Origin: Candidatus Paceibacter sp.
GTDB taxonomy: Bacteria; Patescibacteriota; Patescibacteriia; S139-126
Assembly: GCA_020724865.1 (NCBI GenBank)
Contig: DYGA01000001.1
Location: 835 to 64,834, forward strand
Reading direction: 5' to 3'
DNA length: 64,000 nt
The notes under the pieces: generated by a model
The model's database searches: none
What the model saw: only the letters and a program-made list of their open reading frames with translations
What the model was told of the DNA's origin: nothing
Shown here: in pieces, positions 12,505 through 36,089 of the stretch
Numbering within the stretch: the first letter of the stretch is position 1
How the letters are laid out: each line of letters starts with the position of its first letter
Position numbers and translations under genes: made by a program

Positions 12505-13860
12505 TTAATTATTAAAACTATCATTCACTGCTGCGAAAACATTTTCCACCTGAATTATATCAACTTTCTGACTGATAATTTTAATACTAGTTTTAGGAAT
12601 AATTATTTTTTTATAACCCATCCGACTGGCTTCTCTAACTCTTTGCTCCAATTGTATAGGTACTTTGACGTGTCCTGATAAGCTAACCTCACCAATAGCT
12701 ATGGTTGGTTCTGGAAATTCAATATTTTTTTTGGCAGAAACAATTGCCAAACACACCCCCAAATCAAGCCCAGTATCTTTGCTACTTATTCCTCCGGCTA
12801 AATTTATAAATACATCATCGCTACTTAAATAAATTTTGGCTCTTTTTTGTAATACCGCCAGTAACATTTCTACACGTTTATAATCAAGTCCGTTGATAGT
12901 TCTTTTAGGGTAACCAAAATTCGTATTGGAAGTAAGGGCTTGAATTTCCACCAAAAAGGCTCGACTGCCTTCCCACATTACCGAATGAATGGTACCAGGG
13001 CTAAACTGCTGACTTTGAATAAAAATTCCAGCCGGATCTTTGACTGGCTCAAGTCCACTTTTAACCATTTTAAATATTCCCACTTCACCAGTGGAGCCAA
13101 ACCGATTTTTCACTGACCGCAAAATACGAAATTGCTGTTGTTTATCACCTTCCAAATAAAGTACCACATCTACCAAATGTTCCATAGTCTTAGGGCCCGC
13201 TACTCGTCCCTGTTTGGTAACATGACCAATTAAAATAATACAAATATTATTTTGTTTGGCAGTTTCCATTAGTTTAGCTGCCACCGCTCTAACTTGCGAC
13301 ACTCCGCCCGCTTCAGTTTCAACTTCTTCATAAATCATAGTTTGTACCGAATCAATTACTGCCAAATCTGGCTTAAGTTTGGTTAAGGTAGCACAAATTG
13401 TTCCAATTTGATTATTGGCAATAAATTTCAGATTAGTAATATCAATTTTCATCCTTTCAACCCTACCTTTGACTTGTTCAGCTGATTCTTCACCCGATAC
13501 ATATAAAATTTTTTTTCCTTGTTTTGATAAATAATTAGTAATTTGTAAAACTAGAGTTGACTTTCCTACTCCTGGATCACCGCCAAGCAATAACAATGAA
13601 CCTGGTACTAATCCACCGCCTAATACTCTGTCTATCTCCAGTTCTCCAACTTTCAATCTTTGCATATTACCAGATGCGATTTTACTAAAATCAACAATAT
13701 CCGCCTCTCCGAGCGGACTAAATGTTGTACTTTCTTTTTTAGTTGTGCGACTACTAATTTCTTCAGCTTGCAATGTTCCCCAACTGCCACACTCTCTGCA
13801 CCTACCTTCCCATTTTTGAAATTGAGATCCACATTTAGAACAAGCAAAAATTTGTTTCAT
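12505..13860 (-). CDS. radA: DNA repair protein RadA/Sms
   Basis: N-terminal C4 zinc finger CSKCGSQFQKWEGRCRECGSWGTL; RecA-like Walker A GGDPGVGKSTL; Lon-protease-like C-terminal domain. Confidence 0.9.
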   Translation of the reverse strand: MKQIFACSKCGSQFQKWEGRCRECGSWGTLQAEEISSRTTKKESTTFSPLGEADIVDFSKIASGNMQRLKVGELEIDRVLGGGLVPGSLLLLGGDPGVGKSTLVLQITNYLSKQGKKILYVSGEESAEQVKGRVERMKIDITNLKFIANNQIGTICATLTKLKPDLAVIDSVQTMIYEEVETEAGGVSQVRAVAAKLMETAKQNNICIILIGHVTKQGRVAGPKTMEHLVDVVLYLEGDKQQQFRILRSVKNRFGSTGEVGIFKMVKSGLEPVKDPAGIFIQSQQFSPGTIHSVMWEGSRAFLVEIQALTSNTNFGYPKRTINGLDYKRVEMLLAVLQKRAKIYLSSDDVFINLAGGISSKDTGLDLGVCLAIVSAKKNIEFPEPTIAIGEVSLSGHVKVPIQLEQRVREASRMGYKKIIIPKTSIKIISQKVDIIQVENVFAAVNDSFNN

Positions 13861-13863
13861 AAT

Positions 13864-15321
13864 TTAGGGATTTTGAGTTAAACAATTATTATATATAGCC
13901 CACGCATCTCGCCCATATTCTTCTGCTGCTGGTCCACTACCATTGTATTTACGAAAACAATCTTGTGTCACATCTGCCGGACAAATTTCTTTCCACAAAT
14001 TTGTCACGGCATCAAGGTTTATATCTAATGTAAATAAACTTTTCGGATCATATAATTTACTGCCAATTTGCCTGCAGTGCGGAGCGCCGTTACAAGCAGG
14101 CCCATCAGGAAAAACTGTTATTTGTCCCAAACCAATACCGTGAGAAAAACGCCAATCTAAACCAAGATCAGCTCTATTCGGATTAACAACATCATCATCA
14201 TTTACAGCCGCACCAGTAATACTACAAACAGCGTTTGATTTTTTACCACTATACATTAAACATCCACTATTTACAAAATCACGACGTGATTTTATTCCCT
14301 CTTTTCGGACATCTTCATCATGACCTAAAGCATCTGCTCTACCTGAAGACTCTTTGGTAAAGAGCGTAGCTAAAACACAATAATGTATATTATTTGCCTG
14401 TGAAACTTGCTTCATAGAATTTTTCATATCTTCACTAAATGGTTTGACTAACCTAGTACCGGTAATTTTTTCATAAGCATCACTGCCAATTAAAGTTATA
14501 CCTTCAACTTCATCAATTTTTAAAGGATTAAAACCTACTAAATTTGGATTAATAAAATAAAGCACAGTATAAGAACTAACTACCAGCAAAAGACCAATTA
14601 TAGAATCACGAATGGTTTCTTTGGCTTTATTTATACCTTCCGCGCTACCAGCCGCTGCCAACCACTGCATCCCTCCAAATGCCATATAAGCCACAACAAC
14701 TACTCCAATTGCGCCAATTAACCAATTAAATAATAAGGCAATATATTTAGATAATAGTTCACCATTTACTTCTATACCTTGACCTTTATTGATAGTAAAA
14801 ACCTTTCCACCAAATTCAACTGAGCCGGGGATAGTGACTTGGGGAGTAAATTCTAATCTTTCAATTTTTTCTGGAGGCCTATATTCAGTACTCAAAAATG
14901 AACTTAAAACCTGACCTATGCCTTGACTACAATTTATTTCCTCACAAGTTTGACCATCAATATATTTTGTAATCGGAACATTGCACTGCTCTTGCGTAAT
15001 ATTACTAGTACAAGTTTCAATTTTTTCGTTATATGTATTTATTTTTATACAACAACTTTTTTTATCAAGCGGACAATTTGTATTTTCTTCACAAAAATTA
15101 CTATATATTGGGTAACCTTCAACTGGTTGATAGTTTGGTTCATGAACACCACAATAAAAATCACAGGCAACTTTATCAATATTTTGATTACCTAAACAAT
15201 TACTATTTGGTAAACACTTGCAACACCCTGCTTGTGCACTCACTGGCAAAAAAAATAACCCAAATAAAAAAATAGAACCAATCAAAAATTTTATCCTATA
15301 ATTTCTCATTGATAATTTCAC
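13864..15321 (-). CDS. Secreted Cys-rich protein with a conserved two-helix hydrophobic hairpin (VirB2/TrbC-like) and a C-terminal lytic-transglycosylase-like domain (VirB1-like)
   Basis: Signal peptide; ~20 Cys in the N-domain; hairpin GAIGVVVVAYMAFGGMQWLAAAGSAEGINKAKETIRDSIIGLLLVVSSYTVL nearly identical in pattern to the 17360-18802 protein; C-terminal LATLFTKESSG...SHGIGLGQIT matches the SLT family-1 ES...G[LI]GLMQ catalytic motifs. Confidence 0.5.
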   Translation of the reverse strand: MKLSMRNYRIKFLIGSIFLFGLFFLPVSAQAGCCKCLPNSNCLGNQNIDKVACDFYCGVHEPNYQPVEGYPIYSNFCEENTNCPLDKKSCCIKINTYNEKIETCTSNITQEQCNVPITKYIDGQTCEEINCSQGIGQVLSSFLSTEYRPPEKIERLEFTPQVTIPGSVEFGGKVFTINKGQGIEVNGELLSKYIALLFNWLIGAIGVVVVAYMAFGGMQWLAAAGSAEGINKAKETIRDSIIGLLLVVSSYTVLYFINPNLVGFNPLKIDEVEGITLIGSDAYEKITGTRLVKPFSEDMKNSMKQVSQANNIHYCVLATLFTKESSGRADALGHDEDVRKEGIKSRRDFVNSGCLMYSGKKSNAVCSITGAAVNDDDVVNPNRADLGLDWRFSHGIGLGQITVFPDGPACNGAPHCRQIGSKLYDPKSLFTLDINLDAVTNLWKEICPADVTQDCFRKYNGSGPAAEEYGRDAWAIYNNCLTQNP

Positions 15322-16012
15322 TTAATTCTTCGCTGGTAAATAAACCACGATAAGGCGTATTGTCAATAAAAAAATAAGGAACAGCATCAATCTCTAAATC
15401 AGTAGCCTCAATATTATTCTCATATACTTTATTTTCCATCTGACCTTCATTTAAACATGCGTTGAATTCATTTATTGATAAATTTAAAGCGGCGGCGATT
15501 GATTCTAAAAATTTTAAATCAATATTTGCTTGATTCATAAAAACCTCATGTTGATATTCCCAAAATTTTCCTTGAGCATTGGCACAATAAACTGCTTGTT
15601 GTGCCAGCATACCTTCATTGGTAGAAGCCGTGCCTTTCCAAACTAAACGTAATATTGTCTCTGGATAAATTGCCAACAACTTATAAATTTCATCTTGCTG
15701 TATTTTACACAAAGGACTAAATAAGTCACAATAATAAAAAATTGTTACTTTAGCGTTAGCGCTACCTCTTCTCACATCATCTGGCAATACCTTTGGATAT
15801 AAAATCTTAGCATCACGAATTAAAGGGTCATTATAACTAATTTTTGGTCCTGCTGCATATCTAACGCTGGCCGGGGTTATATTGGTATTGTTTAAATATT
15901 GAACAAAAATAAATAAAAAAATCGATAGAAAAAATAACCCAACAGCAGCAGAAAAAAATAACCAAATTGAAACTTTTGATTTAGATTTATTTTGTTTTGA
16001 TTTTTTAGGCAT
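15296..16012 (-). CDS. DsbA-like thioredoxin-fold thiol:disulfide oxidoreductase with a non-canonical active site
   Basis: N-terminal TM anchor; KVTIFYYCDLFSPLCK aligns to the DsbA/BdbD VTVVEFGDYKCPxCK region with SPLC in place of CPxC and an extra Cys 7 residues upstream; later VYCANAQGKFWEYQHEVF and cis-Pro-loop-like AVPYFFIDN fit the DsbA fold. Confidence 0.55.
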   Translation of the reverse strand: MPKKSKQNKSKSKVSIWLFFSAAVGLFFLSIFLFIFVQYLNNTNITPASVRYAAGPKISYNDPLIRDAKILYPKVLPDDVRRGSANAKVTIFYYCDLFSPLCKIQQDEIYKLLAIYPETILRLVWKGTASTNEGMLAQQAVYCANAQGKFWEYQHEVFMNQANIDLKFLESIAAALNLSINEFNACLNEGQMENKVYENNIEATDLEIDAVPYFFIDNTPYRGLFTSEELSEIINEKL

Positions 16013-16085
16013 AAATATTAAATTTTAAATTATTAATTATAAATTATAAATGAATTTTAAATGATAAATTTATAATTTATAATTT
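16013..16085 (-). promoter_or_regulatory. AT-rich promoter region with tandem TATAAT-like boxes (TTATAATTTATAATTTT); the same motif style recurs upstream of many genes here
   Basis: aaatgataaatttataatttataattttcaaag directly upstream of the 15296-16012 start; similar boxes at 21995-22068, 24930-25037, 37860-37960, 50221-50280. Confidence 0.3.
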
Positions 16086-17354
16086 TCAAAGATTAATACT
16101 ATAAAGCCCACCTGTTGCTTTATCAACAAAGTATAAAACACTTTGATCTTGAGAAACCATTACTTCGCTGGCAGTATACTTAGTTAGATCGCCAACTGGC
16201 TTGGCAAGCAGTGTTTTGGAACCAGTAGTCAAATCTATACGGTAAAATAAATCTGGTATATCATCTGCTACTTCAGGCACATAAGCTGCTCCCTCCGGCA
16301 AATATTCAGGAACAGCACAATATGCATTGGTTCCGGCAATAGCACATTTATCCAACCAAGTTTGAATACCAAGAGAATTGTTATTCATACCAATATTATC
16401 CCCATCGGCTCTAGTAACCCATAACATTGGTCTGGAACCTGACGCTTCAGAGTATATTTGATAAATTACATTCTTTCCATCATCTAACCATTCACCCTTA
16501 AAACCCCTGCCTTGAACGGTTAAAGATTTAAAATTTTCTCCATTTTGACCAATTAAATAAATTTCTGATTGATTTAAACCTCTGCCTTCTCTATAAAAAG
16601 CAATAACTTGATTATTCGGCGACCAAGCCACCTGGACATCTTCTCCAGCATTATTCATAGGCTCAACAAACTTAATTTCACTACCGTCCGGAGTTGCTAC
16701 ACCTAACCAATCATCATTGGCTAAATCTGACTGCCATTTAAAACCAATATTTGTTCCGGTGCGAGAAAAATCAAACTCTGTCATCTGCCTAGGTAGGGTC
16801 ACCTGCTTATCTTGAGTAAAATCATAATAAATATTGGTACTATCCGGATATTCCAAAATTGCCTTTTCACCATCAGGTGACCAGGTGACTGTATCAACAT
16901 TGAAAAATCTTTTATCAGATAAAGGTTGTACCTCACCACTGGCAGTCAAACGATAAAATTTATTGTCAGCTGAGTCGTAATAATTGAAACTTTTACCGTC
17001 ACCAATTGGTTTAACTCCAGTAATATTTTTAGCAATCACTGTTTTAGCAGTCGTAAGCCCACCAATTGCTCGATCACTAACCGTAGGTTGACCGCCTATT
17101 TGACCTGGAGTAGTTGGTATTTGTCCCCCAGATTGGCCGATATTGCCAGAAATTGGCAGTCCGGTAATTGGATCTATCACCACTCCTGTGGGTGGACCTT
17201 CACCAATATCAGGTAACTGACCAGTTTGACCAGGAGTGGTATCTGGTGGAGTAATAGGTACTTCTGTTCGCCAAAATAAAAACCACAGCAGATATCCCAG
17301 TCCTACAACAATTACTGTAAAAATAATAATTTGTATAATTTTTTTTCTGTCCAT
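16086..17354 (-). CDS. Membrane-anchored TolB-like beta-propeller (PD40 repeats) protein with Pro/Gly-rich linker
   Basis: N-terminal TM; PD40-type repeats WSPDGEKAILEY and AWSPNNQVIAFY. Confidence 0.5.
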   Translation of the reverse strand: MDRKKIIQIIIFTVIVVGLGYLLWFLFWRTEVPITPPDTTPGQTGQLPDIGEGPPTGVVIDPITGLPISGNIGQSGGQIPTTPGQIGGQPTVSDRAIGGLTTAKTVIAKNITGVKPIGDGKSFNYYDSADNKFYRLTASGEVQPLSDKRFFNVDTVTWSPDGEKAILEYPDSTNIYYDFTQDKQVTLPRQMTEFDFSRTGTNIGFKWQSDLANDDWLGVATPDGSEIKFVEPMNNAGEDVQVAWSPNNQVIAFYREGRGLNQSEIYLIGQNGENFKSLTVQGRGFKGEWLDDGKNVIYQIYSEASGSRPMLWVTRADGDNIGMNNNSLGIQTWLDKCAIAGTNAYCAVPEYLPEGAAYVPEVADDIPDLFYRIDLTTGSKTLLAKPVGDLTKYTASEVMVSQDQSVLYFVDKATGGLYSINL

Positions 17355-17359
17355 AATTA

Positions 17360-18802
17360 TTAAAATTCAGGCGTATAATAATTTAACATAAGTACCCAAC
17401 ATCTTTCACCAGTATCACAACTACCTCCAACTGGGGGATATTCAGCACAAGGTTTCTCTATCCAATAAAAGGGTGGAAAATCGTGATTAGGTAATGGGTT
17501 AGGTCTTATATAACCATTTAAAGAAATTGTTGTGGGCCTCTCAACAGAGCATTGTGATTGTTTACTTAATACACATATAGAATCAGTGCCTTTACCAGCT
17601 CTTGGTGAATCAGAACAAGTAACTTCTATTTGATTTGATGTTAGTGGATTTGGTACGCCGGTCGCCCAATATTTTAAAACTCTTGGACTTCCATTTTCCA
17701 AACAAATTTCCTGATTATTGTATTTTCCTTCGCTACAAGGTATACGATTAAAAGTATAATTATTCAATGATAATAAATTGGCGTCTTCTATATCAGTTAA
17801 TACACATTCATCTGGTTGCATAAAATCTAAAGATACAATAGGTATAAAAGCTACCCCAGCTTTTAATATATCATTACGAAAACTGCAAACTTTATTATCT
17901 ATTTCTGAAACATTAGATGCTTTTTGAATAGTCTGTAAATATTGATCAAATAACTCACAACTTGATGTATCTTGAGATTTACAACGTTCATTAAATCTAC
18001 TCAAATCAACACACTCAAAACCAGCATTAGATGAACCTGATGTGTTTAATTTAGCTAAACAATATGTCCCATCACCACATTTTAAACCCTGACAAGTATT
18101 ATTGGGATTAATTTCCGAATAATAAGTAAAATTACACCAAGTATCTTCTTTGTTTACTTTGGTTTTACTTTCATCGCCAACTTTTATCCATTTTTGCGAA
18201 CTTTCTGTATCCACACAATAGTTAAGCAAAAAATTGGGTTTAATTCTTTCTACTCTGATATAATCAATATTTACTAAACGTGAATTTATAGTGCCAAGTA
18301 ATACATAAGAACCAACTGCCAGTAGCAAACCTATAAAAGCACCTTGAATAGTATCTTTGGCTTTACCAATTTTTTCAGCGTTTCCCGCAGCCATCATCCA
18401 TTCAAACCCGCCCCATCCTATATAAGCCACAGTAATAATACCAATAACATAAATAAAATAGGTATAAATAACTTTTAAATAATCAGGAAATTGTGAAACT
18501 TTGGTTAAAGTTCCGCCACTTTGAATATCAGGAATCGGGACCGAAAGGTTTATCTCATCTGGCTTTAAATAACATTTGCCATACTGAATATTTTCACTAC
18601 CTTTACATTCTCTTTGAAAATCAGCATCGCCAACCACAAAAAAATAATTTTCCGTTTCACTGCCCGCTTGTCCCAAACATTGTTCCTGTGTCCAGCATTG
18701 GGCTGGTATGTTTTGAGCTAAAACAACTTCAACTAAACCAAAACTAAATAAGGTTAAAAATGTTATAACAAATATTATTTTATATATATTCCACTTATTC
18801 AT
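17360..18802 (-). CDS. Secreted Cys-rich protein with VirB2/TrbC-like hydrophobic hairpin (paralog of the N-terminal part of 13864-15321)
   Basis: Signal peptide; >25 Cys; hairpin YFIYVIGIITVAYIGWGGFEWMMAAGNAEKIGKAKDTIQGAFIGLLLAVGSYVLL shares the motif VAY.xxGGxxWxxAAGxAExIxKAKxTI...IGLLLxVxSY with the 485-aa protein. Confidence 0.45.
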   Translation of the reverse strand: MNKWNIYKIIFVITFLTLFSFGLVEVVLAQNIPAQCWTQEQCLGQAGSETENYFFVVGDADFQRECKGSENIQYGKCYLKPDEINLSVPIPDIQSGGTLTKVSQFPDYLKVIYTYFIYVIGIITVAYIGWGGFEWMMAAGNAEKIGKAKDTIQGAFIGLLLAVGSYVLLGTINSRLVNIDYIRVERIKPNFLLNYCVDTESSQKWIKVGDESKTKVNKEDTWCNFTYYSEINPNNTCQGLKCGDGTYCLAKLNTSGSSNAGFECVDLSRFNERCKSQDTSSCELFDQYLQTIQKASNVSEIDNKVCSFRNDILKAGVAFIPIVSLDFMQPDECVLTDIEDANLLSLNNYTFNRIPCSEGKYNNQEICLENGSPRVLKYWATGVPNPLTSNQIEVTCSDSPRAGKGTDSICVLSKQSQCSVERPTTISLNGYIRPNPLPNHDFPPFYWIEKPCAEYPPVGGSCDTGERCWVLMLNYYTPEF

Positions 18803-20067: not shown

Positions 20068-21960
20068 TTAAATATCCATCTCCTCAGCTTGATTTTGCTG
20101 ACGATTAAACTCCCTTTTTGCTTCTTCGATTTCCAACAACTGCTTGGGGTCGGAAGTAATGAGCTGATCTTCTGTATAGGAAGCGACAATTTTTATAGCT
20201 GCATGCTTGGACCCAGCAAAAAAAATCCCTTCGCCCACGCCGCATTCAAGCAATAGATATTTTTCCCCTTCAGTCAACATAAATGTTTTTTTCACGACAT
20301 CAATGGATGCGGGTGATTGTTTAAGTAACAGCTGCAAAGACGAGTTGGTAACGATTGCCTGACCATAAGGGCTACGTAAAAAATCATTGACATCTTGGGT
20401 TATAGTAGTTACTCCCAAATAATATTTTCGACAACGTTTTACCAAAGCATAGATAAACTTGGCACTATCATCATTTTGCATTAGCCACCAAGCTTCATCA
20501 ATAACCAATATTCTCTTTTTAAGTTCTGATCTTACTATATTCCAAATATAATTAACAATGGTATAAATCGCTATGGGCCTTAATTCATCTTCCAAATCTC
20601 TGACCGAAAAGGTTATCAACTGATTGTTCAAATCAATATTGGTTGGACTATTGAAAAGCCCTGAAAATGTACCTTCTGTATATTTTTTTAAACGCAAAAC
20701 CAAATCATCTCCTCCTTCCATGCCAGATAAAACTTCTTCAAAATCTGACATTAATGGTGTTTCCACGTGAGTCAAATCAGAAGTTGGCGTAATATCTTTT
20801 TTAGCATAAGTTTCAAGTAAGGCACGATCAATAATTGAATCCTCCTGATGGGTAAGATTCCCTAACATCAAACGCATTAACCCCTTCAAGGTAATAACTG
20901 CACTCCGAATAATATCGGCTGGTTTCATATCATCAACCTTACGAGGCAAATCAAATGGATTTATTTTACTGTCACTAGACAAAGAAATATTTATATAAGT
21001 CCCGCCGACAGCATCTGATAAATGTTTGTATTCTTTTTCGGGGTCAATAATAATTACATCGGTTCCCATCATCAAACTGCGTAAAACTTCAAGTTTGATA
21101 GCATAACTTTTACCAGCGCCAGAAGTAGCAAAAACAACCGAATTAGCATTTTGTAAAGAAAATCTATCAAATAAAATCAAACTATTATTATGTCGATTAA
21201 TACCATATAATATTCCTTCATCACTAGTAAGTTCTGAGGATATAAACGGAAAAGACGATGCCACCGGTGAAGAATTCATATTGAAAGAAATCATCAACTC
21301 ATCATTACCCAAGGGTAAGGTGGAATTAAACCCCTGTTCAGCTTGATATAATGTTCTTTTTGTATAAACTAACTTGCTACCAAAAAGCGATTCAATTTTT
21401 TCAGTCAAATTATCAAGTTCTTCTTTGGAATTGGCGTACATAGTTACATACAACGCGTATTGGAAAAACTTTTCTATACCTTGAGTTAAGTCGTCACGCA
21501 ATTTTTCAATATCTTGCAGGGCCGTTTCTCGGATAGGATCACGGGGAGCGCCTTTTTCCGCATCAGCAATCAATTGTGCTTCCAAAACGCCAACTTTATT
21601 TTTCAATTGCTTTAAAACAACCTCAGCTGGAATCGGATAAAAAAACATACCAATATCCATAGTCGCGGAATAATTTATTACTGGCGCAAACCAACCAACT
21701 GAAATATAACGCGGATAATTAATAACAAATATTGTCCGCACAAATTTTGAACCTAACTCCAAATAAGATGGAGTTACTTTAAAAGCAGCCGGAGCAATAA
21801 TATCTCGAATTTTTACCGTACCTTCACGAAATACTTTTTCTGCCTCCAATAGTTGTTTTTCATCCAAAGTTCTTTCCACCTCAATTTCTGCCTGTTCACG
21901 ACGAGAAAGTATCTGTTTAACTGGTCTATTCTTTTGTATGGCTTGTTTGGGATTAAACAT
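20068..21960 (-). CDS. virB4: VirB4/TrbE-family type IV secretion ATPase, C-terminal ATPase portion
   Basis: Walker A VVFATSGAGKSYAIK; Walker B RILVIDEAWWLMQ; overall VirB4/CagE architecture lacking the usual N-terminal domain. Confidence 0.8.
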   Translation of the reverse strand: MFNPKQAIQKNRPVKQILSRREQAEIEVERTLDEKQLLEAEKVFREGTVKIRDIIAPAAFKVTPSYLELGSKFVRTIFVINYPRYISVGWFAPVINYSATMDIGMFFYPIPAEVVLKQLKNKVGVLEAQLIADAEKGAPRDPIRETALQDIEKLRDDLTQGIEKFFQYALYVTMYANSKEELDNLTEKIESLFGSKLVYTKRTLYQAEQGFNSTLPLGNDELMISFNMNSSPVASSFPFISSELTSDEGILYGINRHNNSLILFDRFSLQNANSVVFATSGAGKSYAIKLEVLRSLMMGTDVIIIDPEKEYKHLSDAVGGTYINISLSSDSKINPFDLPRKVDDMKPADIIRSAVITLKGLMRLMLGNLTHQEDSIIDRALLETYAKKDITPTSDLTHVETPLMSDFEEVLSGMEGGDDLVLRLKKYTEGTFSGLFNSPTNIDLNNQLITFSVRDLEDELRPIAIYTIVNYIWNIVRSELKKRILVIDEAWWLMQNDDSAKFIYALVKRCRKYYLGVTTITQDVNDFLRSPYGQAIVTNSSLQLLLKQSPASIDVVKKTFMLTEGEKYLLLECGVGEGIFFAGSKHAAIKIVASYTEDQLITSDPKQLLEIEEAKREFNRQQNQAEEMDI

Positions 21961-22068
21961 AGAAATTAAAATATAGAATCTAGAATTTAAGATATAGGGA
22001 TTAGGATAAAATAATTTTATAATTTATAATTTTCAAACTATATCCTAAACTCTCTATTGTAAATACTG

Positions 22069-22746
22069 TTAACTGGTTCTTAATTTATTAACATCAACTA
22101 ATTTTTGCTGTTCATAAACATCTAAATTGTAAGTATTATAATACAATTCTATCAAACTTTGAGTATCCAATTTAACTGAGGTCAATCCAATGCTGGCTAA
22201 ATTGGACATCACAAAATCAACTCGTTTTTCCAACAATTCTAAATATTGTTCATACTTTTTCTTTTGCAAAGAGATTACCCGAGCCGGAGAGAAAATCGCG
22301 GAAAATCTTTTTATAAAACTTGGTTTTTCAACATTTATTCCTCCATAAGGCACCACCACATAGAAACGTTTGCTCATAATTTCCCCCAATTCAACCAACT
22401 CTTTGACATACTCACGATAATCACTAATTTGAGCGCGCAATAATTCATTGGTCAACATCCGTTCGCGCTGTGCTAACTGCTCCAAATAAAAATCTATATT
22501 CAATTTGCGAGATTGAATAACAATTTGCAAAGGAAAATCTAGAGCATTCAAAAAACTAACATACGCTGCAATGGTAGCATTCTGTTCATCTTCTGATTTT
22601 AAAGCAAAATTGATTGAAGAAACCAACAATACCGCCCGTAAAGTGCCGTCTTTCAAAACAACTGAATCATTTTTAATCTCAGCAATATCTAAATACTGCT
22701 GAGTTGAAATAAGAACTTTTTTATTGGCTAATTTTTTTGATTTCAT
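22069..22746 (-). CDS. VirB4 N-terminal-domain-like protein (probable split-off N-terminal part of VirB4)
   Basis: VVLKDGTLRAVLLVSSINFALKSEDEQNATIAAYVSFLNALDFPLQIVIQS resembles the conserved start of VirB4/TrbE (..kdGsl...f.l.G.d....deel...); encoded directly upstream of the ATPase portion. Confidence 0.45.
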   Translation of the reverse strand: MKSKKLANKKVLISTQQYLDIAEIKNDSVVLKDGTLRAVLLVSSINFALKSEDEQNATIAAYVSFLNALDFPLQIVIQSRKLNIDFYLEQLAQRERMLTNELLRAQISDYREYVKELVELGEIMSKRFYVVVPYGGINVEKPSFIKRFSAIFSPARVISLQKKKYEQYLELLEKRVDFVMSNLASIGLTSVKLDTQSLIELYYNTYNLDVYEQQKLVDVNKLRTS

Positions 22747-22750
22747 TTGA

Positions 22751-22822
22751 TTGGGATTTAGGATTTAGTATTTAGGATTGTAAACTTAACCATTCATCCT
22801 AACTCCTAGCTCCTAACTAATA
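22751..22822. repeat. Inverted TTAGGAT/TTAGGAG heptad arrays (gggatttaggatttagtatttaggatt ... atcctaactcctagctcctaact)
   Basis: Direct reading; same family as 19977-20062. Confidence 0.5.
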
Positions 22823-23269
22823 ATTTTCTCCTTTATAATATCCACCAGTATTGACAATCAATGACAACTCGGCCAATCTGGTGGTTGATAATTGTTTATT
22901 GGTTGGACTAACCAATTTTACTGTATTTAGTAAATCATCTTCTTTCTTTTCTATATCCACATCTTTATCTTTGGAAGAAACTGGGGAATTATCTTTGGCC
23001 CAGATTCGTAAAGATGGTCTCATAATTGTTTGAATGACATTCAGTAAAAAAATATGAAAAGGAGCACCATTAACTTTCAAAAATCCGAAAGCTGCTCCCA
23101 GGGCAACCGTAAAAATCGAAGCAAGTAAAAATCCAGAAAAATCTAAAGTTTTAAAATAGGTGAACAATGCCCCCATAACCACAATCATGATCACAAACTG
23201 ACGAACAGTTATAGGACCTAAGATTTTACTCTCAACATCAATGAATTGTGGCACTAAGAATTGTTGCAT
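22817..23269 (-). CDS. Small two-TM membrane protein, candidate VirB3/PrgI-like
   Basis: 150 aa with two hydrophobic helices (VIMIVVMGALFTYF, LLASIFTVALGAAFGFL) encoded just upstream of the VirB4 pieces, as VirB3-like proteins usually are. Confidence 0.3.
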   Translation of the reverse strand: MQQFLVPQFIDVESKILGPITVRQFVIMIVVMGALFTYFKTLDFSGFLLASIFTVALGAAFGFLKVNGAPFHIFLLNVIQTIMRPSLRIWAKDNSPVSSKDKDVDIEKKEDDLLNTVKLVSPTNKQLSTTRLAELSLIVNTGGYYKGENY

Positions 23270-29012: not shown

Positions 29013-32000
29013 TTAAGGACAACTTGGTCCAACACAAACGGCGTTATTGACAACACTTTGAGCATATCTTTGCGGATTTGCTCCAAAGCCCCAATTATCC
29101 ATAACTTGAATAGTAATATTATAATTACCCGGCACACCAGCATAAGAGTGATACAAAACATGAGGATCACCAGCAGAAGGCCTTTCGTTAAAGTACCCCT
29201 GAACAATAGTATTAGCTGAACCATCACCCCAGTTAATATTGTAACTACGTAAAGGCAATTGATCATTGGCGATATTGGTAGTAAAACTCAATTTAACCGT
29301 TCCGCCATCAGGTAAACTTACAGTTGAAGAAGCATCATTAATTAAAATATTTCCAATCTGAGGTAAAATACTTGCTCCAATATTATTCCAACCACCACCG
29401 GCAACTTCCACATAACGCCAAGACCCGTTTTCATACTGCCAACGATATTCACCTAAAGATTTAATAAACAACTGACTTAAACTACTTCTAGCTGAAACCG
29501 TATCAGTATTGGGCATCGGACTTGGAGTTTGCCAAGAACCAACACAAACTCCAAAATTGATTCCGTCACCTGAGTAACAACTCTTGGCAGTTTCATCATC
29601 AATACACAAATTACCATTACGAGGGCCACCAACACAAACTGAACCAACACAATTTCCGTTATAACATGCGTAAGGGGTGCCAGCCCTAATATTGGGTCCT
29701 GGATTCAAAGATCCATCGTTCATAGTCAAAGTGTTCGCCGCTTCCACATAAATTGGCTGATTGCCTGGTTCAGTTGGTCGCGAATCCCAAGTAGTAGGAT
29801 CATTTTCATTTTGCATTTGATTGGATCCGTCTTGGAAATAACGAGACAATCCACTCTGATAAACTGCACCAAAGGGAAGACTATCTTTGATATAGTTATA
29901 ATCAAGAGGCGTCACATTGTAACCGCTAAACTGATCAACTCTGGTCCAATAAGGATAAGCTGTGATGTCACCATTTGGTTCAATTTGAGCAACTTTTTCC
30001 AAAACCATACAAGGTTCACGCAAACTATACTCTAATGAATAACCAGCTGCTTGACTACCGCTACTACCACTATAATCATCCATAAATATATAATAAGCTC
30101 TTGGATTTCCTTGTGCTGTAAAAATAACTGCAAAAACTAATAGATCGCTGGAATCGCCACAAGTACCTTCTACCGGCCTATCTTCCCCATAATAAGCAGA
30201 ACTACAATAATTAAACCAAGCATATTCATCATTTGCCATGGCATTAGACAATTCAGTTCCACCATAAGACCCAAAAGCAGCTATCTGATTTTTACTCAAC
30301 CTATGCGCCCTTGTTAAAACAGCCCAATCAGGATACTCACCTCTAGTAGATTTTTTTCTTAAAAATATTTTTTCTATATCATGTTCAAAATATTTATTTT
30401 CAGGGGTACCACTAATATCACGGATTATATACCTCGTACCATCTCCTCTAGAACAACCACCTATTGTAAATCCAACTCCACTTTTAAGACCAGACCAATC
30501 ATCACAACTATTATTTTCAAAAATAAAAGGCTCTTGTCCTACATATGATGGATAAATAGTAAATGCTCCCCTTATTACATTTAATTTATAATTATCATGT
30601 GTGTAGAGCCCATAATTTGGATTAGAACTTTCATTACCCGCTGAAACCGCACAATAATACAACGGTACTTTTTCCTCAAAAACCAATGGTCGTTCATTGA
30701 TTTGGGCTACTGAGCCTTTGATAATATCAATTGGCCACCAGTTCACACAGTAAGCCGGATTTCTGGGATCTGCTTCAGCACAAAAACCTGGCCAACCAAC
30801 ATATGATTTAGTGCCTTTGACATAGTTACACTCAGGCGAAGAACTTTCCGGATATAAACGACAACGTTGGCTAACCAATGTTTCTGGATTATTTTTCACT
30901 TGCAAAGCTGGTAGTATAGTCAAACCATCAATAAACATTGTACCTTCTTTGATATTCAAAAGTTCAGCTCTGATGGTTATATTGTTGGCAGTATTGTTAA
31001 ACTTGATAGAAAACTGTTGCCAACCGCCAACACTATAATCCTGTTTAGTGCCAAATTGGCCTACTGTATTACTGCCTTGTAAAATTCTTATATTAGCTCC
31101 AGCGTTATTATTGTCGGTTGGAATATTTTCCCACCTAATAAACCCAGATAAAATATATTCTGAAGGTGACAACGACAATGGTTGATTTAAGAAAACATTA
31201 CTATTGTCGGCACTGGCGTTGTTAGGACTGATAGAAAGTTTTGCGGCTTTTAAACCAGAAATAGCTTGGCTATCAGGGGTCACCCGACAAGTGCTACCAG
31301 CACTACAATTTGAACTATCTGTATTCCAATAAGGAAATGGAGATTGCAGTGGCTGATTGGTAGTAATAGTGTCTTCAAAACTTGGGTTGTATAAAACGTT
31401 GGCTTCATTGCCAATTTGGATCATTTTACTATATGGTAAATACCCTGGAGTGGTACCATTGCCAGTAGCAAAACCCGACCAACTCATTCCCGCTTTGGTA
31501 TAACCACTCATCATTCGCAAATCTTCGACAGTATAAGGAGCTGTATATCCAGTAGCACCGCTGATTTGTTGGCCGACTATTTCAGTATCTGGCAGTTGAG
31601 GAAAACTATTACATTCGCCACTATCATTTAACCCATTACAAATACCTATATCAAAACATTTATCATCACGATTACCTTCACTATCATAAGCTTGTATACG
31701 CGTTTTACAATACAACCACTCTTCACAGACCCGATCTTTTTGTACTTGTAAAATTATATTGACACTATTTTCCGCAGGATTTGAACTACTAATCGGCACA
31801 CTGCCGTCAGGCGTGGCGGTGGTATAAGCACTAGCCGTATAAGCTTGAGGTGCGCCGTCAACTTTGTTAAACAGTCTGCAACCACGCTCGCGATCAACTA
31901 AACCATTGCAGGCAGCGGTATTGACTGACTGCTCTAAGTAAAAATATGAACTCTTGGTCACATCAGATTCGCCTTCTGGATCAATGTATTGACTACAACC

Positions 32001-35000
32001 CATTGCTTCTGGAGAACAAAGCCCTACCCAACCGTCATAATTTGGATCTGTGCTTGGTATTGGTTGCGAGGGATAAGATTGTAAATCTGGACAAAACTCT
32101 TCAGTGCCAGTTTTGTACCAATTAGCCTGAGTACGACCGGGTAATAATTTATATTCACAAGTGCGATTAGCCGGATCTATCAAAAAGGCTGTGGCTCCGG
32201 TGCGTTCATTGGTGTATTGTTCACAGTAAAGCCCGCCAACACCGCACATTGTCGTATTATAATTTTCTGGATTATCAATAATATATTTATCATTGAAAGC
32301 AACTACTGCTCTATTGTCAGATTGACGATTTAAAATAGCTTCTCCCGCCAAAGTACAACCAGCAAACTGACCAGCACAATATTTTTCTTGATCATCAACC
32401 AAGTATACTATAGTGTCAGCTGGCACCGTAACATCATCAAATCCTTGCGGATCAGAAAAGGCGTTATTGCCGGTGTTGTAAGTTTGACTATAAGGAGAAT
32501 TGGAATTTTTGGTATCAATCAAAGCTTTACAGCCCACCTTGGAATCACTACAGAGAGATGTAAAACTAAGCAAGTTTATTTGATTGCCCTTAACATCACG
32601 ATAAGCCTGACAACCCAACTGAGCGCCCACAAAAGGTTGATTACAAATTGCCGGAGTTTCCCAAGAATCATCTATTAAATAATAACTATCTGTTACTTCT
32701 CTAACTATAACATTATCTAGGTAAGCGTTGACTGCATTGGTTTGTAAAAATTCATAAGCAGCGACTTCCCGATCAAAATTAACTGGCCCGAGTCGATAAT
32801 ACTGCCATTCATCAGTCAAACTAACTGTGCCAAAGCTACGCTGCGAACCAGCTATGGGTTGTAAATCTGTAAATTGAATTATATTTTGAGCTTTAGCTTG
32901 TTTGATAAATGCTAATTGCTTGGAGTCTTTTTGAGTAATTTGACTAACTTGGTAAGCTTGAATTTCAAAAGATAAATTAGCCGCCGATCCTGCGCTTCTG
33001 GCCCAAAAAGAAATAGTATAATTTTTACCTTGTTTGATAATTTCTCTGACAGATTTATGTGCCCGAACACCTGACAACTGTAAAGAGTGTCCGCCTACAT
33101 ACACTGATTCACTAGAATTAAATCCATTAGTCCAACCCTCGCTAGTGCCAGATTCAAAATCATCGTTGACTATAATAGTAACCACATTACCTTGATTACC
33201 TCGATATTCTTTACAACCTACAACTTCGGCACGACAAGACCGACTAAAAGATTCAATGCCATAAATAACACTAGAATCCACTGTGCGACGGAAAGGATGA
33301 CAATCATCAGTAGCATAAGTTACAGTCATAATATCCCGTGACCAACTACTACCTTCCGCATCAATAAAGGTGCGACAATTTAGCGGATCATTAGTAGGAT
33401 CACAACTATTACCAGTGGGCGCTCCACCACCAGCTGACTGTAAACGCCAAGTTTTCAATTGATAACCAGCTGTATCACTACCTTCCCAAGTATAAAAAAC
33501 TTTGGCTGCTGGATCGTTGGGCAATATACACTCTCTAATAAAAGTGAAATATCTTATTCCTTCGCCGCCTTGAGCAACCTCATCTAAATTGGTAAATTGT
33601 TCACAACCAACATCGCTTAAACGACAGCTAGTTGCAGAAGCAGGAATTATATTTTCAATACTAGGAGTCAGTAAAGGATTTGCTCTTTGTTCAAAATAAG
33701 TTGGCACCTCTAAATATTGATCATAACCTATACACGAAGCACTGCAATAATCATTACTGCCTAAAACCGCGGGCACGGGTGGATCGCCATTGATTGGAGT
33801 ATATAAACTACAACCAACTTCAGCAGCCGTACAACTTTGAGCATAATTATCACATTCGGAGTCACGGTTAGGATCGTTGACATCAGCTGGACAATTCAAA
33901 TAACTTGGTGCTTTCTTCATATTTTTTTCCTGAATCAACCCCCATTCACCATAAGAATCAAGTATCCCAGCATCAGCATAAATACTCTGATTATTTTGGA
34001 TATATTGGAATATTGATTGGGTCGTGGCTTCATAACCATCAGGCGCAGTTATATTTGTAAGTTCTATGAATTTATTACAACCCTCGTCTTTCGAACTGCA
34101 AGTCTTTACTTGATTATTGAAATATCGCGCATAACTTATGTCACCTAAATCACTGCGATTGTAAACATCACCAAAGGTAATTTGATTGTCACTACCAAAA
34201 CCGTTGGTAGTTTGATTCCAAATATCATCTGCCCAGTAGCCACTTGGAGTTTTATACATACTGTACCATCGGCAACCAACTTGTGACGAATCGCAAGTTT
34301 GCATAGTAGCAGTCAAATAAGAAATTTTATCACTGGTTGATTTTTTTACATATGTTTCACATGTAGAAAACTGAGGGAGACAAGCTTGTCCTTGAAAATT
34401 CCAAGTATTTTTTTCCTTGGTACAATAGCCATATTTTTGACAGGTGCCATTGGGATTTTCAACAATACAAGTCTGCTCGTCTGCACAATAATTTGCTCTT
34501 TGTAATGATTCTTCACTAACTCTTATGGTTCCACCAAAACCATCTGCCACTTCAGTTTCAACGTTTACACGTTGTGATATTTGCGGACCCGGACCTTCTA
34601 TACGACAATCATATTCTGGTAATTTCAAAACCCAATTTGGATCTATAAGATGATAAAATGGAGAAGTTGAAGAACTAAAGGCCTGAAAGTTATCAGCTGG
34701 TGTACCCATAACTTGAGCCAGAGTAAATGTTTCGTTGTTGGTATTTATATCTTTGATATAAAGGGCGGCCAATTCCCAAGTAACCGGAATTATTCTGTAT
34801 TTCCGCATAAAGACTAAACTACGATAAGGGTAACCATTGGTATAAGATGGTTCACTACCATCACTCAAAAAACCAAATGGTTTATTGGGATCCAGATAAC
34901 CTTGCTCAATCGCTTGTCTGACGGTCAAACGTTGGTCAATCGCTGTCGCTAAATTATTATCAATAATACAATTATCAAATAAACGAGCTTGATTTTCTGG

Positions 35001-36089
35001 TGGACAGGACGAGAGTTTGCCCAAAACATCTACACTTCCGCCGCCACGAAAAGATGGAATTATAAATTCTGCATAACTAGCATCTGCGCCTCTGGTTGCA
35101 TAAGAACTGGCAAAATCTCTTGGACCGCCACCGGTAGCGCCACCTTTGCCAGCCAAAACACCTTTTTGTAATCTTTGCAAAAATTTAGACGCTAAAGTAT
35201 TGGTAAATGTCCGCAAAGCATCAGCGGCGATATCACCAGTCAAAGTGGTCCAACCAGAATCAACTGATTTTTCTGCAGTTGCTCCTAGCCAATTTTTTAT
35301 ATCCAAAGCTGGGGTCTTAATAGATTCAAATCCTAAATCACCAATCGGAGATTTTAAACTCTTAACATCTGATTCAATTGACCTAATCAAAGTGGCCATT
35401 TGCTCATCTTGAGCTCTTTTGGTGGAAATATTGGAATATAAAATAAACTGAGCCCCTAAATCATTTGATCGGGGATTAAAATATTGAGCTAACAAGTGAA
35501 AATTTTCTGCATCAAGTAATCGTAAATCAGGTTTTTGTCCATTGATGGATACGTTCAATAATTTAGTTTTTAAAATATCATTGAAAGTGCAGGTTGCTCT
35601 TTGCGGTTCAAAAGCTTGTTTGGTTCTTAAAATCAACTGTAATTTTATATTAGCATTATAAGGTTCACACAAACTGACACCAAATGTGCCTTTAGCTAAC
35701 TCATCCAACCCCTTACCAATCGCCTCATCGCCAATTCCTCTAATATAAGCTCCAATACCTTCATCCCAATACAAAGGTTTTTGTCCTTTATCACCAGTAG
35801 CCAGCCAAGTAGCTGTATCATAAGCTACTCTTTGTAAGAAATAGTCTAGAGCATTTTTGTAAACAATTTTAGCTGCCCTTTGTACAAAAAACCAAATTTT
35901 TTCGGCAATTGAAACTTCAATCTGAGGTTTGCTAACCAATTCAACTGTAGGAGTAGGAACACCAATAGCTTTAATATTTTTTATCGGCAATATATAGCCA
36001 CCTAAAATAAAAAATAAAAACAAAACCAAAAACAAAGATCTGATACTTGTCTTTTTTTGATCTTTGCCTGGTTTAATATTTTTTGGCAT
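29013..36089 (-). CDS. Giant (2358 aa) secreted/membrane-anchored Cys-rich surface protein with C-terminal PKD domain and lectin/CBM-like beta-sandwich regions; candidate adhesin of the T4SS-like system
   Basis: Uninterrupted ORF; N-terminal TM/signal LFLVLFLFFILGGYILPI; >100 Cys and many Trp/Tyr/Asn/Gly; C-terminal INWGDGSANTIV...LYHSYAGVPGNYNITIQVMDNWG matches the PKD motif (WDFGDGS...H.Y...G.Y.VTL.V.D..G); mid-region GGHSLQLSG...YTISFWARSAGSAANLSFEIQAY is CBM-like. Confidence 0.6.
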   Translation of the reverse strand: MPKNIKPGKDQKKTSIRSLFLVLFLFFILGGYILPIKNIKAIGVPTPTVELVSKPQIEVSIAEKIWFFVQRAAKIVYKNALDYFLQRVAYDTATWLATGDKGQKPLYWDEGIGAYIRGIGDEAIGKGLDELAKGTFGVSLCEPYNANIKLQLILRTKQAFEPQRATCTFNDILKTKLLNVSINGQKPDLRLLDAENFHLLAQYFNPRSNDLGAQFILYSNISTKRAQDEQMATLIRSIESDVKSLKSPIGDLGFESIKTPALDIKNWLGATAEKSVDSGWTTLTGDIAADALRTFTNTLASKFLQRLQKGVLAGKGGATGGGPRDFASSYATRGADASYAEFIIPSFRGGGSVDVLGKLSSCPPENQARLFDNCIIDNNLATAIDQRLTVRQAIEQGYLDPNKPFGFLSDGSEPSYTNGYPYRSLVFMRKYRIIPVTWELAALYIKDINTNNETFTLAQVMGTPADNFQAFSSSTSPFYHLIDPNWVLKLPEYDCRIEGPGPQISQRVNVETEVADGFGGTIRVSEESLQRANYCADEQTCIVENPNGTCQKYGYCTKEKNTWNFQGQACLPQFSTCETYVKKSTSDKISYLTATMQTCDSSQVGCRWYSMYKTPSGYWADDIWNQTTNGFGSDNQITFGDVYNRSDLGDISYARYFNNQVKTCSSKDEGCNKFIELTNITAPDGYEATTQSIFQYIQNNQSIYADAGILDSYGEWGLIQEKNMKKAPSYLNCPADVNDPNRDSECDNYAQSCTAAEVGCSLYTPINGDPPVPAVLGSNDYCSASCIGYDQYLEVPTYFEQRANPLLTPSIENIIPASATSCRLSDVGCEQFTNLDEVAQGGEGIRYFTFIRECILPNDPAAKVFYTWEGSDTAGYQLKTWRLQSAGGGAPTGNSCDPTNDPLNCRTFIDAEGSSWSRDIMTVTYATDDCHPFRRTVDSSVIYGIESFSRSCRAEVVGCKEYRGNQGNVVTIIVNDDFESGTSEGWTNGFNSSESVYVGGHSLQLSGVRAHKSVREIIKQGKNYTISFWARSAGSAANLSFEIQAYQVSQITQKDSKQLAFIKQAKAQNIIQFTDLQPIAGSQRSFGTVSLTDEWQYYRLGPVNFDREVAAYEFLQTNAVNAYLDNVIVREVTDSYYLIDDSWETPAICNQPFVGAQLGCQAYRDVKGNQINLLSFTSLCSDSKVGCKALIDTKNSNSPYSQTYNTGNNAFSDPQGFDDVTVPADTIVYLVDDQEKYCAGQFAGCTLAGEAILNRQSDNRAVVAFNDKYIIDNPENYNTTMCGVGGLYCEQYTNERTGATAFLIDPANRTCEYKLLPGRTQANWYKTGTEEFCPDLQSYPSQPIPSTDPNYDGWVGLCSPEAMGCSQYIDPEGESDVTKSSYFYLEQSVNTAACNGLVDRERGCRLFNKVDGAPQAYTASAYTTATPDGSVPISSSNPAENSVNIILQVQKDRVCEEWLYCKTRIQAYDSEGNRDDKCFDIGICNGLNDSGECNSFPQLPDTEIVGQQISGATGYTAPYTVEDLRMMSGYTKAGMSWSGFATGNGTTPGYLPYSKMIQIGNEANVLYNPSFEDTITTNQPLQSPFPYWNTDSSNCSAGSTCRVTPDSQAISGLKAAKLSISPNNASADNSNVFLNQPLSLSPSEYILSGFIRWENIPTDNNNAGANIRILQGSNTVGQFGTKQDYSVGGWQQFSIKFNNTANNITIRAELLNIKEGTMFIDGLTILPALQVKNNPETLVSQRCRLYPESSSPECNYVKGTKSYVGWPGFCAEADPRNPAYCVNWWPIDIIKGSVAQINERPLVFEEKVPLYYCAVSAGNESSNPNYGLYTHDNYKLNVIRGAFTIYPSYVGQEPFIFENNSCDDWSGLKSGVGFTIGGCSRGDGTRYIIRDISGTPENKYFEHDIEKIFLRKKSTRGEYPDWAVLTRAHRLSKNQIAAFGSYGGTELSNAMANDEYAWFNYCSSAYYGEDRPVEGTCGDSSDLLVFAVIFTAQGNPRAYYIFMDDYSGSSGSQAAGYSLEYSLREPCMVLEKVAQIEPNGDITAYPYWTRVDQFSGYNVTPLDYNYIKDSLPFGAVYQSGLSRYFQDGSNQMQNENDPTTWDSRPTEPGNQPIYVEAANTLTMNDGSLNPGPNIRAGTPYACYNGNCVGSVCVGGPRNGNLCIDDETAKSCYSGDGINFGVCVGSWQTPSPMPNTDTVSARSSLSQLFIKSLGEYRWQYENGSWRYVEVAGGGWNNIGASILPQIGNILINDASSTVSLPDGGTVKLSFTTNIANDQLPLRSYNINWGDGSANTIVQGYFNERPSAGDPHVLYHSYAGVPGNYNITIQVMDNWGFGANPQRYAQSVVNNAVCVGPSCP

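Follow-up and report, generated by a model that had tools for sequence, protein, structure and literature searches.

We analysed a 64,000-nucleotide stretch of the genome of Candidatus Paceibacter sp. (the window; contig DYGA01000001.1, positions 835 to 64,834), focusing on a gene on its minus strand (15296..16012) that encodes a 238-aa DsbA/BdbD-family (Thioredoxin_4) protein within a type IV secretion system (T4SS) locus. This DsbA-like protein is a homolog of the DsbA/BdbD family without the family's catalytic signature: Ser (S99) stands at the position of the nucleophilic Cys of CxxC, the second Cys is kept (C102), and a further Cys (C95) lies four residues before S99. Our preferred reading, which may well be correct but which we hold only tentatively and largely by analogy, is that C95 and C102 form a relocated, mostly buried disulfide, and that the protein is dedicated to folding or assembly in the T4SS, its redox chemistry being attenuated or non-classical.

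The family assignment is supported by sequence and structure searches. In Pfam, the protein matches Thioredoxin_4 (PF13462, E=1e-14, 55.5 bits against a cut-off of 23.2) and DSBA (PF01323, E=2.4e-9, 37.7 bits against a cut-off of 25.6), and its translation carries the segments VTIF..., QGKFWEYQHEVF, and DAVPYFFIDN. The closest solved structure by sequence is Wolbachia alpha-DsbA1 (3f4s, phmmer E=2.6e-7), and in that alignment the two Cys of CYHC face S99 and C102, respectively. The AlphaFold2 (AF2) model, built from an input alignment of 16 sequences, has a mean predicted local distance difference test score (pLDDT) of 85.8; from residue 71 on, the means over 10-residue blocks are 86-97. Taken together with the structural matches, its topology (beta 89-96, alpha 100-115, beta 121-128, five helices at 132-205, then beta-beta-alpha) is that of a thioredoxin fold in which a helical domain is inserted after beta2 and before the cis-Pro strand. 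The top Foldseek matches in the PDB are all DsbA-family proteins (E ~1e-10 to 1e-8), including 3gyk, ScsC, alpha-DsbA1, BdbD, MdbA, Corynebacterium DsbA, and TsdA, with a maximum TM-score, normalised to the target, of 0.83. At sequence level the cis-Pro loop is also present, as V211-P212 (15377..15382, minus strand) pairs with V/T-P in alpha-DsbA1, the Pro (P212) being invariant in the alignments. At the N-terminus of helix alpha1, no CxxC is found, the aligned positions being S99-P-L-C102. Judged from its sequence, the protein should not be labelled a disulfide oxidase ahead of activity evidence.

The relocated motif, C95-D-L-F-S99-P-L-C102, spans 15707..15730 on the minus strand (codons TGT GAC TTA TTT AGT CCT TTG TGT). 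Numbered from the nucleophilic Cys position (0), which S99 occupies, C102 is at +3, the second Cys position, and C95, where strand beta1 ends, is at -4. The protein has four Cys in total (C95, C102, C143, and C186), and with only these four there is no CxxC elsewhere in its 238 residues. It might be suspected that a CPLC motif was misread in sequencing or assembly, or that the gene is a pseudogene in decay, as AGT (Ser) is a single nucleotide away from TGT (Cys). However, the identical protein is recorded from 11 contigs, and the motif reads C-D-L-[F/L]-S-P-L-C in 10 of 10 close relatives (P0001-P0010, 59-97% identity) and in five of five metagenome loci at 62-74% identity, a sixth locus (38%) having canonical CPEC. 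A relative from the same gene neighbourhood at 45% identity (P0034), the neighbour-joining sister of the close clade, reads C-D-L-L-S-D-L-C. Altogether, C-D-L-x-S-x-L-C is strictly kept in at least 15 orthologs at 45-97% identity, which come from independent samples and differ at synonymous sites within the motif itself (TGT/TGC, GAC/GAT, TTA/CTT/TTG/CTG, AGT/AGC, and CCT/CCG). With an intact open reading frame (ORF), a mean column identity of 71% in the ortholog alignment, and conserved synteny, these observations rule out error and pseudogene alike, leaving an artefact with practically no likelihood. The original prediction, made from the sequence alone, had proposed a DsbA/BdbD fold, a Ser replacing the nucleophilic Cys, and one additional Cys lying 7 residues upstream of the Cys that remains. 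All three points were borne out, the motif proved to be conserved in orthologs, and neither a canonical CxxC elsewhere nor a misread CPLC was found.

More distant relatives with the same gene neighbourhood (P0011, P0029, P0037, P0046, P0164-P0167, and L095; 35-45% identity) have a normal CxxC, in the variants CEPC, CPEC, CSDC, CPAC, and CPQC, and carry Ser, Asn, or Ala at -4. Since the canonical motif is found in all outgroups, CxxC is ancestral, and the direction of change, from S...C-x-x-C to C...S-x-x-C, is clear. The shifted motif has a single origin in this clade, with P0034 as sister. In terms of codons, the exchange of Ser and Cys amounts to AGT<->TGT at both positions, i.e., two single-nucleotide transversions. 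Ser at -4 accompanies an intact CxxC in 280 of 470 aligned domains, and it is the commonest -4 residue in the wider family sample. In addition, every subfamily member, shifted or canonical, has exactly four Cys, and the Cys gained at -4 offsets numerically the Cys lost at 0, as in a reciprocal Ser/Cys swap. Diagnostic positions of the clade are concentrated nearby: 12 of the 17 fall within residues 93-121 (beta1 end, alpha1, and beta2 start), and the substitutions include V/E to Y/F at -6 and a newly fixed Leu at +2. This cluster looks like a concerted remodelling around C102 that was followed by strong constraint, and not like decay.

The same arrangement recurs in other DsbA-like domains. 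We aligned 641 non-identical domains with a complete motif to the clade profile and recorded the residue at -4. Among domains with an intact CxxC, 3 carry Cys(-4) and 544 do not (3/547); where Cys(0) is lost and Cys(+3) kept, four lineages carry Cys(-4) and seven domains lack it (4/11), a difference for which Fisher's exact test at the level of lineages gives p=2.8e-6, with few lineages and without formal phylogenetic correction. The four lineages are the present clade, P0080/54-211 (FCDFQSPYC), P0116/374-535 (YCDFEGPFC), and P0027/293-470 (FCNYRKYQC), and their pairwise identities are 22-32%. The number of Cys per domain is 2 or 4 in these four lineages and mostly odd in xxxC domains without Cys(-4). 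Besides the present clade, three or more further DsbA-like domains have each acquired the combination of Cys(-4), non-Cys(0), and Cys(+3) on their own, and the covariation, seen in few lineages, is evidence that -4 and +3 are a coupled pair.

A large set of proteins among P0016-P0163, which are matches from a representative library, consists of 2-6 tandem DsbA-like domains and reaches up to ~1200 aa. Such tandem proteins dominated the top of the library matches and were of use for the covariation analysis, though not as orthologs. In many of those listed, individual domains have systematically degenerate motifs: a first domain often has CxxS/T, a last domain often W-[FY]-S-D-L-x-S-P-L-[ST]. 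The S-P-L element is also found in tandem-protein domains that lack both active-site Cys (SPLS, SPLT, and SPLA), a resemblance that speaks for our preferred reading. A similar mixture of active and inactive domains is known in PDI. A scan of the genome collection for the degenerate pattern gave, among the matches listed, only distant DsbA homologs at 34% identity or less.

In our preferred reading, C95 and C102 would bond with each other, the bond replacing the CxxC disulfide. The proximity of the two positions is plausible because of three precedents: the -4 residue of Escherichia coli thioredoxin, Trp28, lies near the active-site disulfide in three dimensions (PMC3646739); the peroxiredoxin signature PxxxTxxC has a 0/+4/+7 spacing, its Pro lining the pocket that holds the Cys (PMC5719442); and in Sco proteins the N-terminal Cys is shifted into the beta1-alpha1 loop (PMC2757866). 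C95, at the end of beta1, would share its face of the strand with the -6 residue (now aromatic), and C102 is at the position of the normally buried second Cys, so that the bond would be largely buried and would staple beta1 to helix alpha1. Residues -6 and -4 on a beta-strand point the same way, and the -6 residue (Asp26 in thioredoxin, Glu24 in DsbA) is buried beneath the second Cys. The peptide-binding surface of DsbA would persist in the cis-Pro loop, the helical cap, and the new Leu at +2. Its clients would be the emerging Cys-rich ectodomains of two pilin-like proteins of the locus and perhaps a giant exported protein; bulk oxidation would come from another source. The DsbA-like protein would then help in folding or assembly, its thiol-disulfide chemistry being attenuated or non-classical, and would not be a strong DsbA-type oxidant. 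DsbA owes its oxidising strength to an exposed thiolate that is activated by the helix dipole. Because this exposed nucleophile is gone and the remaining Cys would face the buried side, a redox-attenuated or inert folding factor is no less likely than an atypical catalyst. The original prediction of a dedicated, possibly atypical disulfide catalyst therefore stands in part: dedication to the T4SS is supported by synteny (described below), whereas catalysis is not established, given the loss of the exposed nucleophile.

Several points weigh against our preferred reading. The case for the C95-C102 bond and for its burial is one of analogy and covariation. An inert protein could also have dispensed with C102, the fate of this Cys in most degenerate DsbA domains, and the retention of C102 together with the fixation of C95 could mean that the pair is still used chemically. 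The neighbouring candidate clients are as Cys-rich as those in the canonical-CxxC lineages, and neither VKOR, DsbB, CcdA, nor a second DsbA was seen among the scanned ORFs of at least 100 aa in the 64-kb window. Furthermore, wherever a redox-inactive TraF occurs in F-like systems, a redox-active partner occurs too (PMC11315126), and Streptococcus gordonii SdbA reportedly needs only one CXXC Cys for activity, the title of the study cited for this naming the C-terminal Cys (PMC12453122, citing Davey 2016).

Much of this evidence would also fit a protein that is still a genuine thiol-disulfide oxidoreductase, which we regard as the main alternative and a serious one, if on balance less likely than our preferred reading. 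Catalysis would proceed either through a redox-active C-x6-C, with client thiols attacking through the space left by the replacement of C99 by Ser, or through C102 alone, in the manner of SdbA, with C95 as the resolving Cys; the protein would be a dedicated oxidase or isomerase for Cys-rich T4SS proteins, with an altered redox potential and altered partner needs. C95, C102, S-P-L, and the cis-Pro loop are all strictly retained, the Cys(-4) arrangement has four apparently independent origins, and the three domains with Cys at -4, 0, and +3 together imply that Cys(-4) is compatible with an active CxxC. The clients remain Cys-rich and translationally linked to the gene, and the ORFs scanned encode no further Dsb component. 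Besides the constant pairing of redox-inactive TraF with a redox-active partner and the single-Cys activity of SdbA, Sco provides a case of a protein that is functional with a shifted N-terminal Cys (PMC2757866). However, the exposed, activated thiolate is lost, and positions -4 and +3 would face the buried side, by analogy with other thioredoxin-fold proteins (PMC3646739, PMC5719442). In addition, of the C(-4)...C(+3) domains that arose independently, three out of four adjoin canonical CxxC domains in multi-domain proteins, as non-catalytic modules would, and the same set of ORFs contains no reoxidising partner that we could find. A bolder proposal is that C-x3-[S/G]-x-x-C is a recurrent functional alternative to the DsbA-family redox centre, which evolved at least four times and would allow DsbB/VKOR-independent folding of the Cys-rich surface proteins of the T4SS or attachment apparatus in quinone-poor Patescibacteria. 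We consider this unlikely, though by no means far-fetched; if true, this would be a catalytic solution new to the thioredoxin fold, and the protein would not be a dead enzyme.

The spacing of C-x3-S-x2-C also mimics the peroxiredoxin signature P-x3-T-x2-C, which raises the question of a peroxiredoxin-like or sulfenic-acid single-Cys centre with C102 as peroxidatic and C95 as resolving Cys. Counted from the retained Cys, the key positions -7, -3, and 0 are spaced identically, a hydroxyl residue (Ser, conservative for Thr) replaces the first Cys (PMC2757866, PMC5719442), and the thioredoxin-fold Atlas places peroxiredoxins as a 'cxxC' state (PMC2757866). However, the Pro of the peroxiredoxin signature is Cys here, no conserved Arg precedes the cis-Pro loop (DLEIDAVP), and the architecture is of DsbA type with a helical insertion, the close structural matches being all DsbA-family and the 50 best PDB matches listed by Foldseek containing no peroxiredoxin structure. 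On the basis of the Pro-to-Cys replacement, the lack of the catalytic Arg, and the architecture, we reject membership of the peroxiredoxin family. The conserved T4SS context gives no reason for a peroxidase either, and a peroxiredoxin-like centre is highly improbable.

A metal site for Cu or Zn, formed in the manner of Sco or ScsC by C95, C102, and nearby carboxylates, is improbable to nearly the same degree. ScsC and DsbA-like proteins annotated with 'copper resistance' are among the closest structures, Sco binds copper through a shifted CxxxC (PMC2757866), and D96, adjacent to C95, is invariant in the 16-sequence alignment, with Glu or Asn in its place in some canonical subfamily members. 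However, D96 is also present in ordinary CxxC members of the family. We rejected a Sco-like site because there is no conserved His ligand, the locus has no copper-handling genes, and the conserved context is a T4SS and not metal homeostasis. The two motifs differ further in that the Cys is shifted by one residue in Sco1/SenC and by four here, and in that Sco binds copper with an extra His and belongs to another subfamily and another context.

Compared with BdbD, alpha-DsbA1, and MdbA (Thioredoxin_4), the DsbA-like protein shares the thioredoxin fold with its helical insertion, the cis-Pro loop, and the second Cys pair (C143/C186 corresponding to C97/C146), but in place of CxxC it has S-P-L-C and, four residues upstream, a compensating Cys, the -6 residue is aromatic where theirs is acidic or aliphatic, and no DsbB or VKOR is seen nearby. 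Actinobacterial MdbA and Mycobacterium tuberculosis DsbA are extracytoplasmic, membrane-tethered proteins. C143 (15584..15586, minus strand), in the helical insertion, and C186 (15455..15457, minus strand) align with the Cys that are mutated in the C97A/C146A entry of alpha-DsbA1 (3f4t), and both are invariant in the subfamily; they are therefore the two Cys of a probable structural disulfide. SdbA, as an extracytoplasmic oxidoreductase cited as oxidising with one CXXC Cys, is a precedent for single-Cys activity, but its single-Cys state is reportedly that of an engineered mutant, whereas a single active-site CXXC Cys is the natural, conserved state here.

A functional analogy, and no more than that, can be drawn with the F plasmid. 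TraF and TrbB are DsbC-like periplasmic proteins of diderm F-type systems; like them, the DsbA-like protein has a thioredoxin fold and is encoded inside a T4SS cluster with Cys-rich components, but it is of DsbA/BdbD type, membrane-anchored, and part of a monoderm-type Patescibacteria T4SS. TraF, encoded with the T4SS of the F plasmid, has the thioredoxin fold but lacks CXXC; its role in pilus extension is redox-independent and not precisely clear, and the F-plasmid T4SS components are Cys-rich, TraN having 22 Cys (PMC11315126). Both active-site Cys are lost in TraF, whereas the DsbA-like protein keeps one and has a new one. General Pfam and NCBIfam scans gave no TraF or TrbB match, no dedicated homology test having been made.

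Outside the thioredoxin domain, the protein has an N-terminal signal-anchor (residues 15-37; 15902..15970, minus strand), a hydrophobic segment that follows a Lys-rich N-terminus (MPKKSKQNKSKSK) and is spanned in the AF2 model by one long helix at 11-41. By the positive-inside rule, its topology would be N-in/C-out, and the redox-fold domain would lie outside the cytoplasm. Between anchor and thioredoxin domain lies a linker motif of the subfamily (residues 52-76; YAAGPKISYxDPLIxxAKxxYPKV; 15785..15859, minus strand), which is near-invariant in shifted and canonical relatives (invariant G55, D62, P63, L64, I65, Y72, and P73). AF2 confidence is low here, with pLDDT <50 at 64-68 and block means of 70 (51-60) and 51 (61-70). 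Our guess is that this motif could be a docking peptide for another T4SS component. The best NCBIfam match of the whole protein is the Rcas_1661 family thioredoxin-like (seleno)lipoprotein; because the score is far under the cut-off (59.7 bits against 190), the protein is a relative and not a member of that family.

The DsbA-like gene is a fixed component of the Patescibacteria monoderm-type T4SS locus. The locus comprises, in order, genes for a PrgI/VirB3-like protein, a TraC/TrsD-like protein, a VirB4-like ATPase, two small proteins, a Cys-rich pilin-like protein, a TolB-like propeller, the DsbA-like protein, and a second pilin-like protein, followed by radA, with recG nearby, and the same order is found in eight loci at 35-97% identity, shifted and canonical alike. 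The association with Cys-rich exported proteins that had been noted in the original prediction is confirmed by this synteny, which extends across the subfamily down to 35% identity. The T4SS core genes (20068..23269, minus strand), identified by Pfam and NCBIfam and in the same order in orthologous loci, encode the VirB4-like ATPase (20068-21960), the TraC/TrsD-like protein (22069-22746), and the PrgI/VirB3-like protein (22817-23269).

Three minus-strand genes of the cluster encode candidate clients. The product of the gene immediately downstream (13864..15309) combines a Cys-rich ectodomain, a T4SS pilin-like membrane domain (Pfam T4SS_pilin; the NCBIfam Mbov_0395 pilin-like match is under the cut-off), and an SLT-like lytic transglycosylase domain, and has 22 Cys. 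A second Cys-rich T4SS pilin-like protein (17360..18802; Pfam and NCBIfam) also has 22 Cys. The giant exported protein (29013..36089; 2358 aa), a possible client, has 68 Cys, and not the more than 100 that had been claimed for it; one CBM_4_9 domain is the only family match that we found in it. Cys content within the cluster is bimodal, with 22, 22, and 68 in these proteins and 0-2 in the remaining ones, and neighbours in orthologous loci have 13-26 Cys in the shifted and canonical groups alike. The Cys counts of the three exported proteins of the cluster are all even.

The downstream gene had been described as a VirB1-like gene lying upstream and overlapping the DsbA-like gene by 26 nt. It lies downstream (3'), and the longer overlap holds only if GTG at 15321 is the start (13864-15321); with ATG at 15309, the overlap is 14 nt (15296..15309, minus strand). 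In orthologous loci the gene is called each time with an ATG start and a 14-nt overlap, and the true overlap is probably 14 nt. Such an overlap suggests co-translation or translational coupling. The VirB1-like label is reasonable for a pilin-like domain fused to an SLT-type domain and holds through transitive homology: the C-terminal domain has no direct match in Pfam, PHROGs, or PDB sequence searches, but it is clearly homologous to P0216 (BLASTP E=2e-39), which passes Pfam SLT, as do P0217 and P0218. The C-terminal cell-wall hydrolase module of this protein is swapped by lineage, while the Cys-rich N-terminal region and the pilin-like domain are kept: positional orthologs (L085:1624-3006, L086:10758-12143, and L087:5542-6786) carry 3D, VanY, or NlpC/P60-CHAP modules and not an SLT-like one, and the SLT-like version is found in all shifted-motif loci examined.

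In the literature we covered, which is incomplete, no natural DsbA-type SxxC protein with a compensating upstream Cys is described, and nothing directly relevant was found on a DsbA-like component of Patescibacteria T4SS loci or on DsbA or VKOR in CPR bacteria. A 2025 survey of Patescibacteria T4SS loci contains none of the words thioredoxin, disulfide, and oxidoreductase (PMC12102498). The DsbA-family protein is thus a conserved and so far unremarked component of a T4SS locus whose system is thought to underlie the host-dependent lifestyle of Patescibacteria. The apparent swap of the nucleophilic Cys with Ser(-4), followed by a long evolutionary freeze and recurring independently, constitutes a natural active-site experiment, and either biochemical outcome would be informative on how thioredoxin-fold active sites are rewired: a buried C95-C102 staple would make the protein a TraF-like, redox-inert assembly factor derived from DsbA, and a redox-active pair would be a new C-x6-C centre. 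The covariation rule (Cys at -4 upon loss of Cys(0)) also provides a checkable annotation marker for DsbA-like proteins that should not be presumed to be oxidases.

The gene directly upstream of the DsbA-like gene (16086..17354, minus strand; Pfam PD40) encodes a membrane-anchored TolB-like beta-propeller protein with 2 Cys that are conserved in orthologs; its NCBIfam TolB propeller match is far under the cut-off. The 73-nt gap between the two genes (16013-16085) consists almost wholly of A+T and contains repeats of TATAAATT-like units. A promoter and terminator scan of the region gave promoter-like matches in this gap, the regional number of matches being no higher than chance.

In orthologous loci, small genes for four-helix-bundle proteins (Pfam 23S_rRNA_IVP, one also bAvd) are inserted in the T4SS cluster (L081:2116-2478 and 9601-9939, L082:3289-3627, and L083:1188-1526), and in L081 and L082 one of them lies directly upstream of the DsbA-like gene. 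Among the scanned ORFs of the window, which are of at least 100 aa, no match to this type of family was found. Proteins of the bAvd type are accessory factors of diversity-generating retroelements.

The window is chromosomal, with tRNAs and genes for LeuRS, PNPase, S15, KsgA, and ClpB-type proteins. Going by the genes linked to its T4SS cluster, its source would probably be a Patescibacterium of the ABY1 type. A ComF-like phosphoribosyltransferase-domain protein (6696-7358, plus strand), RecG (9002-11059, plus strand), and RadA (12505-13860, minus strand) are encoded at the flank of the T4SS cluster, which agrees with the linkage of comF, recG, and radA to monoderm-type T4SS loci reported for the Patescibacteria class ABY1 (PMC12102498).

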